IMG/VR virus record: IMGVR_UViG_2778260996_000001
Span: 1-5,689 of that record
Direction: 5' to 3' (one strand)
DNA length: 5,689 nt
Source: a virus
Lineage: Duplodnaviria > Heunggongvirae > Uroviricota > Caudoviricetes
Shown here piece by piece: positions 1-5,689 of the stretch. The first letter of the stretch is position 1. Each line of letters opens with the position of its first letter. The notes beneath the pieces are model-generated. The model searched no databases. It had not been told where the DNA came from and saw nothing but the letters and a program-made list of their open reading frames with translations. A program made the position numbers and the translations under genes.

Positions 1-501
1 AAAACCTGGTCCCTGACGCATCCGGTGGATGACGCAATTACCCTGCTGACACAGGGCGGCAGACTGACCTGTAAGTTCCGCCTGTCAGGCGCACTGACCA
101 ACAATCAGTTCGGGCTGGGGATTTATCTGTATACGGATGCTCCCGTTCCTGATGGTGTGGCGATGACGGGTACCGGTAATCCGTTCCTGATGTCGTACTT
201 CACTCAGACCACTGACGGCAGAGTGAATCTGATGCATCACAGGAAAGCCGGAAACACGAAGCTGGGGGAGTTCGGCGATTACGGTAACGACTGGCAGACG
301 CTGGAGCTGGTGTTCACCGCCGGCAGTGCCACGGTTACTCCGAAACTGAATGGAGTGGCTGGCCCGGCATTCCAGGTTATAAAAGACAGTCTGACACTGG
401 GACTGAATGCGCTGACGCTGACGGATGTTACAAAAAATGCAGCGTATGGCGTTGAGATAGAAAGTCTGGTGCTGGAGATAAATGCACCGGCATCATCATA
501 A
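1..501 (+). CDS. hypothetical protein, C-terminal portion (gene starts upstream of window); beta-rich, possibly lectin/carbohydrate-binding-like
   Basis: Reading frame 1 is open from nt 1 (KTWSLTHPV...) to the TAA at 499-501, so the GTG at 25 is probably internal. Gly/Thr/Val-rich composition suggests a beta-sandwich; no motif I can assign to a family. It sits immediately upstream of the lysis cassette, the slot where lambdoid prophages carry morons. Confidence 0.55.
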
Positions 502-586
502 AAAGTGAGCCAGTCAAATGGAAGGTATCGTTAAACTCACCGGTAGTGTCAGTGGGTCGTCTGAGACGCCTGCATGAGTTATCAGA

Positions 587-615
587 GCCATCAGTACTTA
601 ACTGGTGGCTTTTTT
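587..615 (+). terminator. intrinsic-terminator-like hairpin upstream of the holin gene (candidate late-operon tR'-type terminator)
   Basis: GCCATCAG (587-594) / 7-nt loop / CTGGTGGC (602-609) forms an 8-bp stem with one G-U pair, followed directly by TTTTTT (610-615). It lies 35 nt upstream of the holin ATG. Confidence 0.45.
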
Positions 616-650
616 ATTGTTGTCAGCTTCCGGATAACGGGAGACGGGGT

Positions 651-866
651 ATGTACCAGATGGAAAAAATCACAACAGGTGTGTCATACACCACGTCAGC
701 GGTGGGGACGGGATACTGGTTACTGCAGCTGCTGGACAAAGTCTCTCCGTCCCAGTGGGTGGCAATCGGTGTGCTGGGGAGTCTGCTGTTTGGCCTGCTG
801 ACGTATCTGACAAACCTTTATTTCAAGATTAAAGAAGATAAGCGCAAGGCTGCGAGAGGTGAATAA
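651..866 (+). CDS. S: class II holin / pinholin, phage 21 S21-like, with dual-start motif
   Basis: ATG at 651 preceded by GGGAGA (639-644) at 6-nt spacing. The 71-aa product [25 protein letters not shown]...[36 protein letters not shown] has two TMDs and a charged C-terminus, and closely resembles S21 / E. coli essD as I recall them. Met1 and Met4 give the antiholin/holin dual start. The GTG-extended ORF from 546 is rejected because it spans the terminator hairpin. Confidence 0.9.
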
Positions 867-1363
867 TGCCTCCATCATTACGAAAAGCCGTTGCTGCTGC
901 TATTGGTGGTGGGGCTGTTGCCATAGCGTCTGTGCTCATCACTGGTCCGAGTGGTGACGATGGCCTGGAAGGTGTCAGCTACATACCATACGAAGATATC
1001 GTTGGCGTATGGACTGTATGTCATGGACACACCGGAAAAGACATCATGCCCGGTAAAACGTATACCGAAGCAGAATGCAAAGCCCTCCTGAATAAAGACC
1101 TTGCCACGGTCGCCAGACAAATTAACCCGTACATCAAAATCGATATACCGGAAACAACGCGCGGCGCTCTTTACTCGTTCGTTTACAACGTGGGCGCTGG
1201 CAATTTCAGAACATCGACGCTTCTTCGCAAAATAAACCAGGGCGATATCAAAGGCGCATGTGATCAGCTACGGCGCTGGACATACGCTGGCGGTAAGCAA
1301 TGGAAAGGGCTGATGACTCGCCGTGAGATTGAGCGTGAAGTCTGTTTGTGGGGGCAACAATGA
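866..1363 (+). CDS. R: SAR endolysin (phage lysozyme, T4-lysozyme-like muramidase), R21-like
   Basis: ATG overlaps the holin stop (TAATG at 864-868). The N-terminus [27 protein letters not shown] is a Gly/Ala-rich signal-anchor-release domain, followed by a lysozyme core ([23 protein letters not shown] ... [21 protein letters not shown]). Near-identical to phage 21 R as recalled. Confidence 0.93.
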
Positions 1364-1797
1364 GCAGAGTAACCGCGATTATCTACGTTCTGGTCATCTG
1401 CCTCATCGTCTGCCTTTCATGGGCTGTTAATCATTACCGTGATAACGCCATCGCCTACAAAGAGCAGCGCGATAAAGCCACATCCATCATCGCTGATATG
1501 CAGAAGCGGCAACGTGATGTAGCAGAACTTGACGCCAGATACACAAAGGAGCTTGCTGATGCTAATGCGACTATCGAAAGTCTCCGTGCTGATGTTTCTG
1601 CTGGGCGTAAGCGCCTGCAAGTCTCCGCCACCTGTGCAAAGTCAACGACCGGAGCCAGCAGCATGGGCGATGGAGAAAGCCCAGGACTTACAGCAGATGC
1701 TGAACTCAATTATTACCGTCTCCGAGGTGGAATCGACAAGATAACCGCGCAGGTTAACTACCTGCAGGAATACATCAGGACGCAGTGCTTAAAATAA
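1360..1797 (+). CDS. Rz: Rz i-spanin (inner-membrane spanin subunit)
   Basis: ATGA overlap with the endolysin stop (1360-1363), GGGG at 1351-1354 as RBS. The product [39 protein letters not shown]... has an N-terminal TMD plus coiled-coil periplasmic region and strongly resembles lambda Rz from memory. The GTG at 1348 in the ORF track is a less likely start. Confidence 0.88.
1559..1744 (+). CDS. Rz1: Rz1 o-spanin (outer-membrane lipoprotein spanin), embedded in Rz in the +1 frame
   Basis: ATG at 1559 preceded by AAGGAG (1546-1551). The product [20 protein letters not shown]|[16 protein letters not shown]... has a signal peptide with lipobox-like VSAC followed by a proline-rich mature segment, the classic Rz1 architecture, and lies wholly inside Rz. 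Confidence 0.8.
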
Positions 1798-1837
1798 TTT
1801 TAATTTCACTGAAATTTAACAAGTGACTTTCAGGAAA

Positions 1838-1864
1838 ATGCCTCGCAGATGCGGGGCATTTTTG
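1838..1864 (+). terminator. rho-independent terminator downstream of Rz/Rz1 (possibly bidirectional)
   Basis: ATGCCTCGC (1838-1846) / AGAT loop / GCGGGGCAT (1851-1859) forms a 9-bp GC-rich stem with one G-U pair, followed by TTTT(G) and preceded by AAAA. Confidence 0.7.
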
Positions 1865-2015
1865 TACCGGTATTTCACCGCGCACCGCAGCGCACAATAA
1901 ACACCGAACCTGACCCTTTGGAATGGGCCTTTGAGGATACCAGTTAGTGCTGGCGAGCCTCGGTGGGCTGGTTTCCTGTGCGGCAAAGGTTCATTTCAAA
2001 GAAGCAGGCAACGCC

Positions 2016-2564
2016 ATGAATGAATTAATTGCGAATCATGACTTCGACTTTCGCCAGTTAGTTACCGCAGCAGAAGGTCAACCGGTAACTGACACCTTCC
2101 AGATTGCCAGGGCATTTGGTAAACGCCATCAGCATGTGATTAGGGCTATTAAATGTTTGAGATGTTCTGAGGAATTCTCGACAACCCATTTTTGGGCCGT
2201 CGAGAAAATCAATGGCTTAGGTATTTTTGACAAGAAACAGATTTACTACCGCATGGACTTTAGTGGCTTCGTTATGCTGGTTATGGGATTTAACGGGGCA
2301 AAAGCCGATGCTGTTAAAGAAGCCTATATCAATGCGTTTAACTGGATGTCAGCAGAACTCCGTAAGTACAGCGAAAGTTATGAAGCAGAACGTAACGCCG
2401 TAATGCTGGAGTACATGAAAGAGAAGGATGTCGCCAGCATGTCAGGCCGTCTGCTCAATCGCTGGGGGAGAACGAAAAAACCTCAATTGCTTGCAAAGCT
2501 GGAACGTCTGGAGAGACAGGGACAGTTTTTATTACCGGGATTCGATAAAGGTATTCAAGCCTGA
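2016..2564 (+). CDS. rha: Rha-family phage regulatory protein (antirepressor-like, Phage_pRha domain)
   Basis: The translation contains the Rha signature ...VTDTFQIARAFGKRHQHVIRAIKCL... and ...FSGFVMLVMGFNGAKADAVKEAYINAF.... ATG at 2016 (MNELIANHDFDF...) is chosen over the upstream GTG at 1947; both are possible starts. The position after the lysis genes matches where rha sits in P22-like genomes. Confidence 0.82.
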   Translation: MNELIANHDFDFRQLVTAAEGQPVTDTFQIARAFGKRHQHVIRAIKCLRCSEEFSTTHFWAVEKINGLGIFDKKQIYYRMDFSGFVMLVMGFNGAKADAVKEAYINAFNWMSAELRKYSESYEAERNAVMLEYMKEKDVASMSGRLLNRWGRTKKPQLLAKLERLERQGQFLLPGFDKGIQA

Positions 2565-2862
2565 CACATTATGCGCTGTATCGTCGCCGTATTCCCGCAT
2601 TAACCATGACCGTAGCCCGACAGGGAGACTCCTCTGCGCGAGTGTGCGGGGATAATCAAAAACGATACACACCGGGGTTTACCGCGTTAACGGAGCGCGG
2701 CGTTGTCCCCTCATGGTCGCTGGTTCGGTGCGATGGTGGAAGAAACCGGACGATGTGTTACCTCGCAAGACCTGTTATGTCATGTGTCTGATTTGTGATT
2801 TAAGTCGGATAATTGTCGTTGCCATTAAGCAGAGGATTGATGGCCGACAGGGTGGCATTGTT

Positions 2863-2879
2863 AGAATAAGACTTATTCT
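2863..2879. promoter_or_regulatory. perfect 8-bp inverted repeat with 1-bp spacer (candidate operator) in the promoter region of the TonB-C lipoprotein gene
   Basis: AGAATAAG-A-CTTATTCT at 2863-2879, about 20 nt upstream of the lipoprotein start. It overlaps a possible -10 (TAGAAT 2862-2867); a weak -35 candidate TTGATG lies at 2837-2842 with a long 19-nt spacer. Confidence 0.35.
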
Positions 2880-2899
2880 TATCTGTGCCGGGAATGAAA

Positions 2900-3226
2900 A
2901 TGAAAAGAAATCTTCCGTTAATTATTTTGTTGTCTTCTCTGGTTATGGGCTGTACGCAACATAAAACAGATATGCCCCGACAGTTGGTTAAGGCATTACC
3001 ACAATATCCGGCCTATGCAGCGGCAAATTATATAAAGGGACGGGTTGATGTGAAGTTTGATATTGGTGCTGATGGTACTGTCACCCGAATTGAGTTTATC
3101 CGTTCAGAGCCGCACCATCTGTTTGATGAGCAGGTTGTAAAGGCGATGGCAAAATGGCGATTTGAGAAGGACAGGCCGCGTAAAGGCGTGAAGAAAACGT
3201 TTATCTTTAGTCCTTCTGCACCCTGA
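2900..3226 (+). CDS. small secreted (probable lipo)protein consisting of a free-standing TonB C-terminal domain
   Basis: ATG at 2900 with GGGA (2890-2893) at 6-nt spacing; ATG 2894 and GTG 2885 are alternatives. Signal peptide MKRNLPLIILLSSLVMG|C with lipobox-like VMGC. The mature part LPQYPAYAAANYIKGRVDVKFDIGADGTVTRIEFIRSEPHHLFDEQVVKAMAKWRFE matches the TonB_C signature (compare E. coli TonB [55 protein letters not shown], from memory). No proline-rich linker or N-terminal ExbBD-coupling TMD is present. Confidence 0.8.
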   Translation: MKRNLPLIILLSSLVMGCTQHKTDMPRQLVKALPQYPAYAAANYIKGRVDVKFDIGADGTVTRIEFIRSEPHHLFDEQVVKAMAKWRFEKDRPRKGVKKTFIFSPSAP

Positions 3227-3357
3227 TTATTTCATCAGAAATTAATTATCACTCTGTTGTTATTCTGTACATTCCGGCTGGGTAAGTCTTGTTCCGCCGG
3301 GTATGAAGATGAAATATTGTTGGAGGACAGTGGGTACCTGCTCCTGTAACCGAACGT

Positions 3358-3558
3358 TCATTTCTCGTTATTTGTCATGCTGGCCGGACGCAGATGCGTT
3401 GCATCTGTTGCCAGCCTTCTCCTGCAGGCTTCAATAACCCACGCTGAAAAGTTACCGGAACCTTTATGTTCAAGGGCGATATTGATCTGTTCAATCATGT
3501 GATTGGGGAAACGGATATTGCGGATTGTGGTTCTGCGGGTCCGGTTTTTCGATGACAT
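3358..3558 (-). CDS. small basic ribbon-helix-helix-like DNA-binding protein (possibly YlcI/YnfO-like prophage protein family; family assignment from memory only)
   Basis: Minus-strand ATG (complement of 3556-3558) preceded by AGAGGA at 6-nt spacing. The 66-aa product has an Arg-rich N-terminus and a predicted beta-strand TIRNIRFP followed by two helices (MIEQINIALEHKG / NFSAWVIEACRRRL), an Arc/MetJ/CopG-like layout. No competing + strand ORF exists in 3227-3599. Confidence 0.65.
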   Translation of the reverse strand: MSSKNRTRRTTIRNIRFPNHMIEQINIALEHKGSGNFSAWVIEACRRRLATDATHLRPASMTNNEK

Positions 3559-3599
3559 TTTCTTTCCTCTGGTGACAAGCTATATGGAGAGGATTTTAC

Positions 3600-3965
3600 A
3601 TGGCTGTGCTTCGTACGTTACCGGGCAGAATCAAAACTCTGAACACCCGGCGGGTGAATGTCCTGAAGGGTGAACAGCGTCGGGTCAGTGGTAGTGCCCG
3701 GGTTTCCCTCAAGCGTCGTATCTGGCTGAGGGATGCCGGACAGTGCTGTCTCTGTGGGCGTGTGGTTGACCTTTGTGACAGTGAACTTGAGCACCGCATT
3801 GCACTTCAGTTCGGTGGTGGTAATGAGGAGACGAATCTCTGGACGCTCTGTACCGAATGCCATCGACAAAAGTCTGCTCGTGAAGCGGCGAGTGGTATGC
3901 CAGACCCGACGCTGCCGGAGGTGTCCGGAGGTAGTGGCAGAGCGGACGACATCATCGGACTGTAA
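3600..3965 (+). CDS. phage-associated HNH endonuclease (terminase-associated type)
   Basis: ATG at 3600 preceded by GGAGAGGA (3586-3593). The product carries an HNH/zinc-finger motif: CCLCG...DSELEHRIALQFGG...NLWTLCTECHRQK. Its position immediately upstream of the terminase small and large subunit genes is typical of HK97-like cos packaging modules. Confidence 0.9.
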   Translation: MAVLRTLPGRIKTLNTRRVNVLKGEQRRVSGSARVSLKRRIWLRDAGQCCLCGRVVDLCDSELEHRIALQFGGGNEETNLWTLCTECHRQKSAREAASGMPDPTLPEVSGGSGRADDIIGL

Positions 3966-4025
3966 CCCGACCCGGGGGGGGTATCATCCGGCGTAAAAAA
4001 AGATCGCTTTGGACACCGCCCCCCC
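3966..4025. other. candidate cos cleavage region: G8 run and C7 run flanking a 34-bp AT-rich segment
   Basis: GGGGGGGG at 3974-3981 and CCCCCCC at 4019-4025, non-coding, between the HNH stop and the GTTAAC repeat cluster. The assignment as cosN-like is inference from position only. Confidence 0.3.
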
Positions 4026-4057
4026 TCTCACGCAGAGAAAAAATTCCCGTTTCAGGG

Positions 4058-4185
4058 CAGTTAACATGTTAACTGGCTGTCCGGGCATTTTTGCGGTTTT
4101 TATCTTTATTATTCAGTTTGTTGTGCGGAAAAAATGTTAACTGGCTTTTTCAGCAAATGTTAACCAGGCAGCAGTTAACATTTGC
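4058..4185. repeat. cluster of five GTTAAC-containing repeats (18-bp perfect palindrome, 13-bp direct repeat, 12-bp inverted repeat): candidate terminase small-subunit binding sites (cosB/R-site-like)
   Basis: CAGTTAACATGTTAACTG (4058-4075) is a perfect palindrome. ATGTTAACTGGCT occurs at 4066-4078 and 4134-4146. GCAAATGTTAAC (4153-4164) and GTTAACATTTGC (4174-4185) are inverted arms with a 9-bp spacer. T-tract-rich bendable DNA lies between them (4085-4135). All of this sits directly upstream of the terS start. Confidence 0.5.
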
Positions 4186-4255
4186 GGCATGAGACGCCGG
4201 GAAAAATGGGCTGAACCATACCCGGCTGAGTGCGTTCTGGACCCGGGAGGAGGCT

Positions 4256-4819
4256 GTGCTGACAACGCAAAAACGAAAATTTGCGCTGGCGCTCATGTCC
4301 GGGAAAAACAAAACAGCGTCAGCCATTGCCGCTGGTTATTCGGCGAAGACCGCCAGGGTTAAAGGCTCGCAGCTGGCAAAAGATCCGGAGGTGCTTGCGT
4401 TTATAGCCCGTAAACAATGCGAGACGGTGGAGGTGGATGAGGTTCCTGTTTACCGGCAGAAAAAATCAGAGCAGGAGGATAAACCCCGTCGCCGTGAGGC
4501 GGCTGCAATACCACAGCCGGACGAAAACAATCCGGAGATGCCTCCGCCCGCGGTGATATCTCATGGTATTGAATATATGGAGGATGGTCTTCCCGATCCG
4601 GTGAAAGCGATGGGGCGTCTTCTGGTGGAGAACATTAATACCGACCCCAGGCTGGCGCTGGATGCGGCTTATAAGCTGGCGCAGTTCACGCACCACAAAA
4701 AAGGGGATGCCGGTAAAAAATCGGCAAAAGGTGACGCCGCGAAAAAAGCGGCTAACCGTTTTGCGGTGCCACCACCACCCCGCCTGGTGGTGAATAATGA
4801 TAATGAGGGCAACGGATGA
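4256..4819 (+). CDS. terS: terminase small subunit (phage Terminase_2/P27-type HTH small subunit)
   Basis: GTG at 4256 directly after GGGAGGAGG (4245-4253). The N-terminus KRKFALALMSGKNKTASAIAAGYSAKTARVKGSQLAKDPEVLAFI matches the small-terminase HTH signature (AGYS.K.A ... L.K.P.V..I). ATGA overlap with the downstream large-subunit gene (4816-4819). Confidence 0.85.
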   Translation: MLTTQKRKFALALMSGKNKTASAIAAGYSAKTARVKGSQLAKDPEVLAFIARKQCETVEVDEVPVYRQKKSEQEDKPRRREAAAIPQPDENNPEMPPPAVISHGIEYMEDGLPDPVKAMGRLLVENINTDPRLALDAAYKLAQFTHHKKGDAGKKSAKGDAAKKAANRFAVPPPPRLVVNNDNEGNG

Positions 4820-5616
4820 TACCTGTGTGGAGCACGGCCTGCCCGGACTGGGCAGAGCGCCTGAAAAAGGGGCTGTCGATTATTCCGGCTCCGATTTATC
4901 CGGAGCAGGCCGCACATGCCCTGGCGATTTTTAAACAACTGCGGATTGTGGATGCACCTGGTAGCCCTACGTTCGGGGAGTCCTGTGCACCGTGGGTGTT
5001 TGACCTGGTGGCGGCCCTGTTTGGCTCCTACGATGCGCAGACCGGTGTACGCCATATCAAGGAAGTTTTTATCCTTATCCCCAAGAAAAACTCGAAGTCC
5101 ACGCTGGCCGCGGGGATCATGATGACTGCACTGTTACTGAACTGGCGGCAGGCGGCGGGTTACACGATTCTGGCCCCGACTGTGGAGGTGGCGGCCAACG
5201 CCTTCAACCCTGCCCGGGATATGGTACGACGTGACGATGATCTGGATGACCTCTGCCAGGTACAGACCCATATCCGGACCATCACCCACCGGGTGACGGA
5301 CACCACCCTGAAGGTGGTGGCAGCCGATCCGAATACGGTGTCCGGTATCAAGTCCGTGGGTACGCTGATTGATGAGTTGTGGCTGTTTGGCAAGCAGTGC
5401 AAGGCGGAGGACATGTTACGTGAAGCCATAGGCGGCCTTGCCTCCCGCCCGGAAGGGTTTGTGGTGTATACGACCACCCAGTCGAATGAACCGCCCGCCG
5501 GGGTGTTCAGACAGAAACTGCAGTACGCCCGGGATGTGCGCGACGGCAAAATTCATGATCCGCACTTTCTGCCGGTGATATTTGAACACCCTCCTGAAAT
5601 GGTGGAAAGCGGGTAA
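4816..5616 (+). CDS. terL: terminase large subunit, N-terminal ATPase domain only; ORF ends prematurely (probably disrupted or pseudogenised)
   Basis: Translationally coupled to terS. Walker A-like P-loop ILIPKKNSKST and Walker B-like VGTLIDELWLFG (compare HK97 TerL GRKNGKS / IIDELHAH, from memory). The ORF stops at 5614-5616 after 266 aa and all three forward frames hit stops by 5665, whereas large terminases are typically over 400 aa with a C-terminal nuclease domain. Confidence 0.8.
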   Translation: MIPVWSTACPDWAERLKKGLSIIPAPIYPEQAAHALAIFKQLRIVDAPGSPTFGESCAPWVFDLVAALFGSYDAQTGVRHIKEVFILIPKKNSKSTLAAGIMMTALLLNWRQAAGYTILAPTVEVAANAFNPARDMVRRDDDLDDLCQVQTHIRTITHRVTDTTLKVVAADPNTVSGIKSVGTLIDELWLFGKQCKAEDMLREAIGGLASRPEGFVVYTTTQSNEPPAGVFRQKLQYARDVRDGKIHDPHFLPVIFEHPPEMVESG

Positions 5617-5689
5617 GCGTCGTCTCAGCACCGTCTGGCAGATCCTGAAATTCCTGAGAGAATAGTGGACACCAAATATGGTGGACGCT

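Follow-up and report, generated by a model that had tools for sequence, protein, structure and literature searches.

The 3' end of a nanS-p type esterase gene and a putative intrinsic terminator ahead of the lysis genes in a phage late region

The DNA considered here, referred to throughout as the window, is the whole 5,689-nucleotide stretch (positions 1 to 5,689) of the virus record IMGVR_UViG_2778260996_000001 (Caudoviricetes), and its first 650 bases carry the end of one gene and the non-coding DNA that leads into a lysis cassette (Table 1). On the + strand, frame 1 stays open from base 1 up to the TAA stop at 499-501, and its 5' end runs off the window, in keeping with an earlier sequence-only reading of these bases, which had the gene continuing upstream. 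What is left is the last 166 residues of the product, with a single Cys; the window does not include the gene's 5' two thirds. The esterase stop lies 149 nt 5' of the holin start, and Q is upstream in all relatives examined, which places the fragment between Q and the holin gene S in the late operon. The holin offers two Met codons, Met1 at 651 and the in-frame Met4 at 660. Rz is followed by genes for a Rha regulator, the TonB-C-like lipoprotein, an HNH endonuclease, and the small and large terminase subunits (Pfam). The best sigma-70-like match in the window lies elsewhere, on the minus strand at 3054-3027 (TTCACA-16-TATAAT, 11/12), antisense within the TonB-C-like lipoprotein ORF.

Table 1. 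Coordinates, strands and supporting evidence of the features discussed (positions are those of the window).
Feature	Position	Strand	Evidence or remark
nanS-p type sialate O-acetylesterase gene, 3' end (166 codons + TAA)	1..501	+	Pfam, DNA identity, PDB, AF2
DUF6645 profile match, fragment residues 16-126	46..378	+	Pfam
Non-coding spacer, esterase stop to terminator	502..583	+	
Predicted intrinsic (Rho-independent) terminator	584..618	+	scanner, folding energy, conservation, covariation
Small hairpin over holin Shine-Dalgarno	627..643	+	centroid fold
Phage-21-type class II holin (pinholin), dual start	651..866	+	Pfam Phage_holin_2_1, E 1.4e-32; annotations in relatives
SAR endolysin	866..1363	+	Pfam Phage_lysozyme, E 2e-45; Phage_lysis, E 1e-34
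Rz/Rz1	1360-1797		lysis cassette
TonB-C-like lipoprotein ORF	2885-3226		

The sole Pfam match of the 166-residue fragment is DUF6645 (E 4e-19), and NCBIfam gave no family for the fragment or for a full-length relative. A Q antiterminator, a Stx subunit or another regulator is therefore rejected as the identity of this protein; the first of these, for which no Q-family Pfam match was obtained, had already been set aside in the sequence-only reading. The composition which that reading described as rich in Gly, Thr and Val is so for Thr (12.7%) and Gly (10.8%), alongside Leu (12.7%) and Ala (8.4%), while Val is unremarkable at 6.6%. Identity at the DNA level leads directly to complete genes. The first 900 bases of the window are 98.8% identical to phage JLK-2012, in which they form the end of a 1854-nt gene annotated yjhS (617 aa), and over the first 650 bases the identity is 99.8% to several genomes of E. 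coli that produce Shiga toxin (STEC), including that of E. coli O26 RM10386, where the corresponding protein is the 617-aa WP_000023141.1. In the complete relative a DUF1737 domain (residues 4-50), a SASA domain (66-262) and a DUF6645 domain (467-577) occur in one ORF (Pfam). This three-domain architecture belongs to relatives that are 98.8-99.8% identical over the shared DNA, the window having the last 166 codons only.

Structural comparisons lead to the same family. Residues 59-379 of the complete relative match E. coli NanS (PDB 3PT5, E 8e-121), and residues 421-613 match the 'NanS-p' chain 6YP6_A (phmmer, E 4e-29 over 193 residues), which two reports describe as the C-terminal domain of vb_24B_21 of phi24B, an Stx phage (PMC10462455, PMC8065619). 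The AF2 model of the fragment, made from a shallow alignment of 6 sequences because the homologue search with the 166-aa fragment gave mostly partial or frameshifted entries, has moderate confidence (pLDDT 73, pTM 0.74) and is mostly beta, with nine strands and one helix, as the beta-rich composition had suggested to the first reading. Its best PDB match in a Foldseek search is again 6YP6 (TM 0.80, rmsd 2.7 A, 33% identity), followed by galectins, LG/LNS domains, PL7 lyases, CBM66 and the sialic-acid-binding domain of the V. cholerae sialidase. The conclusion is that bases 1-501 encode the C-terminal domain, a lectin-like jelly-roll, of a sialate O-acetylesterase of the NanS-p type. An esterase of this type with a carbohydrate-binding C-terminus had been named beforehand as one candidate, to be sought as an SGNH esterase or lectin-like domain; the search was positive on both counts, with the SGNH-type SASA domain found in the complete homologues and the 6YP6 match found for the domain in the window itself.

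Within the family, the window domain is only about 33-36% identical to the crystallised 933W/phi24B allele and is 92.8% identical, at the DNA level, to that of Stx2 phage 86. The phage 86 C-terminus has been classed as a separate group, 'CTR4' (Pascal et al. 2023), and the window domain belongs to this published allele group. Four aromatic residues have been put forward for the phi24B sugar site, namely Y510, Y515, Y540 and F611 (PMC10462455). By sequence alignment the window has F at Y510, Y at Y515, F at Y540 and L at F611, so that three of the four positions are aromatic, and an aromatic platform like that of phi24B is plausible. Even for the crystallised phi24B allele, sugar binding is a proposed function and not an experimental finding (PMC8065619). 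Comparison with more diverged alleles gives pN/pS values of 0.15-0.39, which indicate purifying selection, consistent with a functional domain.

The domains of NanS-p are also reshuffled independently of each other. Phage 86, which has a Traversvirus head, combines a 933W-type DUF1737 domain (99% identical, including the Tyr42 anchor loop) with a C-terminal domain of the window type; JLK-2012, 434 and strain Z1323 share a common DUF1737 variant in which the loop has three residues fewer and the linker is also shorter. (The DUF1737 alignment covered L003 3190-3429, L127 1727-1966, L001 4648-4887, L002 3648-3887 and L004 5648-5887.) The family as a whole is small, with 60 cluster representatives at E <= 1e-3 among 1.84 billion proteins, and its architectures include SASA with DUF6645, DUF1737 with SASA and DUF6645, and DUF1737 with DUF6645 without the esterase. 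The esterase-less proteins, P0050 (294 aa), P0075 (440 aa), P0010 (201 aa) and P0016 (195 aa), may have arisen from nanS-p by deletion, or may be decoration proteins of a natural 'anchor + lectin' type.

The N-terminal domain bears on where the protein acts. A recent preprint describes phi24B gp84 as a capsid-decorating virion protein that is anchored by DUF1737, the domain sitting as a hexamer on the T=9 capsid's central hexons, and reports that the C-terminal domain is present in fresh particles and lost on storage by slow proteolysis (bioRxiv 10.64898/2026.04.10.717836, 2026). NanS-p could accordingly be mainly a virion component, with the window domain as a distal glycan-binding head that holds the phage in mucus and a role that is not chiefly metabolic. 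The presence of gp84 in phi24B virions speaks for this, as do the esterase-less proteins, whose pairing of DUF1737 with DUF6645 is what would be expected of an anchor-plus-lectin decoration protein. Binding is reported, however, for the T=9 capsid of phi24B and not for a T=7 capsid, and the window's phage has a different head module, with HK97-like genes downstream. The same C-terminal allele moreover travels with three unrelated heads, lambda-type (434), Traversvirus (phage 86) and HK97-like (here), and the DUF1737 anchor loop of the nearest relatives is three residues shorter than that of phi24B and 933W. A mainly structural role is on this evidence rather unlikely for the window's protein, although it does not exclude an esterase or carbohydrate-binding role, with which it is compatible. 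A more far-reaching form of the proposal, which must be regarded as distinctly unlikely, would have a phage with an HK97-like head also display NanS-p on its capsid, the CTR4 domain being a head with a specificity unlike that of phi24B, and the family as a whole being primarily a modular 'anchor + enzyme + lectin' decoration for mucus adherence, with modules swapped independently and DUF1737-DUF6645 as its minimal form. The sequence-only reading had set an accessory function against a standard structural protein; that opposition is partly touched by the capsid location of gp84, which means that 'accessory moron' and 'structural protein' are no longer exclusive for the NanS-p family, and the identity of the window's gene as a nanS-p type esterase stands.

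The segment is common. At 80% or more coverage the 650 bases occur in 1211 of 5426 complete E. coli genomes, in up to 12 places per genome, and database annotations of the segment read SASA family carbohydrate esterase or 9-O-acetyl-N-acetylneuraminic acid deacetylase. The gene order in the STEC relatives is Q, tRNAs, a TerB-like gene, a DUF3927 gene and the 617-aa esterase, with the holin directly after. The window as a whole has a less simple ancestry. End-to-end matches to it are lacking among the complete E. coli genomes, where the best hit covers 86% with an identity of about 97%, and also among the viral loci that the holin pattern retrieved. It is a mosaic in which the best relative varies, with JLK-2012 over 1-1476, strain Z1323 over 657-2752 and other prophages over 2382-5613.

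Truncated pseudogenes annotated as 'DUF6645 domain-containing protein' are common in databases, where many DUF6645 entries are partial, frameshifted or annotated alone. Together with the mosaic structure and the lack of an end-to-end match among complete E. coli genomes, this would suit a decayed remnant, that is, a lone functionless DUF6645 fragment left in a cryptic prophage by deletion, frameshift or IS insertion. Against such decay, the 166 codons are uninterrupted and their translation is 100% identical to the products of intact 617-aa genes, the DNA being 99.8% identical to those in the STEC genomes named above, and the lysis and packaging genes downstream in the window are intact ORFs. 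That the window copy is a remnant is thus very unlikely, and the end of a probably intact nanS-p type gene is the reading retained here.

Beyond the esterase stop, the non-coding DNA contains a hairpin with the features of an intrinsic terminator. The core stem, GCCATCAGT/ACTGGTGGC, pairs 587-595 with 601-609 around the loop ACTTA (596-600) and is followed by T6 at 610-615 and then ATT; core and T6 occupy exactly the interval 587-615 that had been called a terminator from the sequence alone, right before the holin start at 651. Flanking A-U and G-U pairs lengthen the nine-pair core to 12 pairs (584-595/601-612). The folding energy is -17 kcal/mol against -5.7 +/- 2.3 for shuffled sequences (z -4.9), and none of 200 shuffles was as stable. 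The number of terminator-like sites in the window is in itself not significant (9 versus 6.1 +/- 2.4 expected), and the hairpin at 584-612 is the longest of them.

Conservation of the hairpin was followed in 120 viral contigs fetched by the start of this holin type. A hairpin with a T-rich tail was found 5' of the phage-21-type holin start at 123 loci, in 37 sequence variants and with the same spacing in most. In a covariation alignment of 26 variants, 92.5% of the cells are paired and five of the 12 pairs have changed on both sides, for example from A-U to G-C at the fourth core pair; the covariation score was reached by none of 500 shuffles, and pairing falls to 24-67% when the partner columns are slid. 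The T-run is degraded in some variants, e.g. ...CCCCTCTTGTTG, and the efficiency of termination probably varies among them. Upstream of the hairpin lies either the CTR4 esterase directly or an ORF like L0106 of 933W, and the hairpin is always 5' of the holin start. Because the upstream genes vary while the hairpin stays before the holin, it is to be counted with the lysis cassette, as its 5' edge, rather than with nanS-p. In the curated record of phage 434, a + strand terminator located 45 nt 5' of the holin start covers the aligned hairpin. Phage 21 has a non-homologous hairpin and U-run between the tRNAs and S21 (-25.5 kcal/mol, z -4.8); the occurrence of an unrelated hairpin at the same position argues for selection on termination itself. 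With its GC-rich stem, short loop and U-run, 584-618 is a predicted intrinsic terminator inside the late operon, and the holin is the first lysis gene that it would protect. Searching the literature on Stx phages for a terminator already described upstream of S gave nothing directly relevant.

The spacer between the esterase stop and the holin occurs in three sizes, 149 nt, about 285 nt and about 438 nt (window 502-583 as against L004 7499-7797 and L002 5499-5945). The long phage 434 spacer contains two similar units of A-run plus hairpin, annotated as minus-strand terminators.

Late regions of EHEC prophages produce terminator-ended small RNAs. That the hairpin is not primarily a terminator but an RNA 3'-end or stability element, the end of an sRNA from the nanS-p 3' UTR, or a mere recombination joint between mosaic modules would also suit its location exactly where similarity between phages begins and ends and the weak T-runs of some variants, but is highly improbable given that no Rfam family matched anywhere in the window at E <= 1, that compensatory changes preserve the canonical geometry (GC stem, 5-nt loop, T6), and that phage 21 has its non-homologous hairpin and U-run at the same position; a stabilising 3' end and a terminator are in any case not mutually exclusive roles. 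The predicted terminator is accordingly kept as the primary assignment.

A second, smaller hairpin follows at 627-643 (CUUCCG / GAUAA / CGGGAG), with the holin Shine-Dalgarno GGAG (640-643) in its 3' arm. Its energy alone is not significant (z -0.7). Across the 37 variants the stem is almost unchanged and the loop differs (GATAA, GATTG, AGTA, TTGCG, TAGTG). A dual start, S21-71/S21-68, is annotated in phage 21, and we infer for the hairpin a candidate role in regulating which of the two holin starts is used. A search of the literature on an S21 stem-loop returned nothing directly relevant.

The sequence-only reading had called the larger hairpin tR'-like, a description that is apt for its proposed function and fails for its position. 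In the phage 21 record the late promoter, a Q-binding element, a pause element and a terminator defined by experiment are all found no further than about 50 nt from the end of Q, and the same pR'/tR' sequence occurs in JLK-2012 (L001, about 3233-3275). In both phages the distance from the pR' start to tR' is no more than about 50 nt, tR' coming directly after pR'/Q. In the nearest relatives of the window the tR' that adjoins Q is about 2.8 kb before the point corresponding to window base 1 and about 3.3 kb 5' of the hairpin. The window hairpin is thus not tR'. Three more + strand terminators follow in JLK-2012, one after the tRNAs (3523-3542), one before nanS-p (4535-4553) and the window's hairpin (6584-6612), a layout that makes the window hairpin the fourth and last leader terminator that Q-modified polymerase would have to pass. 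In JLK-2012, nanS-p itself is bracketed by strong + strand terminators (L001 4535-4553 and 6584-6612).

The 3' arm and T-tract of the hairpin do resemble tR'21, as AAC(T)GGTGGCTTTTTTATT. Window bases 601-618, AACTGGTGGCTTTTTTATT, nearly repeat AACGGTGGCTTTTTTTATT of the phage 21 tR' (L005 3571-3590), and the local score of the hairpin against tR'21 is 26, as against 14-18 for unrelated terminators. Homology to the phage 21 tR' was not accepted, the likeness being limited to about 20 nt of a kind typical of terminators; it could reflect chance convergence of terminators or an old duplication.

A promoter of its own for nanS-p, as in a classical moron, was rejected: a crude scanner, which missed the experimentally known tR'21 and pR'21, detected no sigma-70-like site in JLK-2012 from the preceding terminator up to where the gene starts, nor in window 502-650. 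The evidence is consistent with the late-operon arrangement that had been proposed from the sequence, with the putative terminator placed serially before the lysis genes and no promoter found in 502-650.

Taken together, these observations are very probably explained by the end of a nanS-p gene and an intrinsic terminator located in a Q-dependent late operon before the lysis genes. The NanS-p protein would consist of an N-terminal DUF1737, a central SGNH/SASA esterase that would remove 9-O-acetyl groups from sialic acids, and the C-terminal lectin-like jelly-roll, which presumably tethers the esterase to sialylated mucin glycans and may be an outward-facing glycan-binding head when the protein sits on a capsid. 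For other alleles of NanS-p, esterase activity, growth on Neu5,9Ac2 and deacetylation of mucin O-glycans have been reported (PMC8065619). The Q-dependent late promoter would drive nanS-p along with the lysis genes. In the lysogen, serial terminators, the last of them at 584-618, would stop leaked, unmodified polymerase before the lethal holin and endolysin genes; after induction, Q-modified polymerase would read through, and the esterase, lysis and virion proteins would be made together. Mitomycin C raises nanS-p mRNA by 1-2.4 logs (PMC10462455), which fits a late gene, and z1466, the 933W allele, is induced alongside stx (PMC8065619).

The finding is already known, in that it concerns a widespread, annotated prophage gene and a terminator marked in curated phage records, and it is of little weight in itself. 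The NanS-p family nevertheless matters for STEC biology: its enzymes allow EHEC to use the O-acetylated sialic acids of mucin and may decorate the capsids of Stx phages, and its C-terminal domain is diverse, with alleles that run from CTR1, the group of the phi24B domain, to CTR4.

Among known systems, the closest are the NanS-p proteins of 933W (L0105/z1466) and phi24B (vb_24B_21/gp84; 6YP6), which belong to the same family, have the same domain and are encoded upstream of the holin in the Q-to-S region; their complete forms, like the complete relatives of the window's gene, read DUF1737-SASA-DUF6645. They differ in that 933W has the extra ORF L0106 between esterase and terminator, and in that one of the four proposed sugar-site aromatics of phi24B is Leu in the window allele. 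Unlike the stx-carrying phages, the nearest relatives of the window lack stx upstream, its place being taken by tRNAs, a TerB-like gene and a DUF3927 gene. Chromosomal NanS (YjhS, 3PT5) shares with the complete relatives a homologous catalytic SASA/SGNH domain (E 8e-121), but the match to its 337-residue chain covers the catalytic part only, so that it is without a counterpart of DUF1737 or DUF6645, and nothing in the window is homologous to it. The concanavalin-A-like lectin and CBM folds share with the window domain the beta-sandwich jelly-roll fold class (Foldseek), whereas TM scores are only 0.4-0.55 and identities 7-15%. The lambda-type tR', finally, resembles the window hairpin in being intrinsic, on the late-operon strand and 5' of the lysis genes, but the window hairpin is not adjacent to pR'/qut, and in the relatives tR' is followed by three further terminators.
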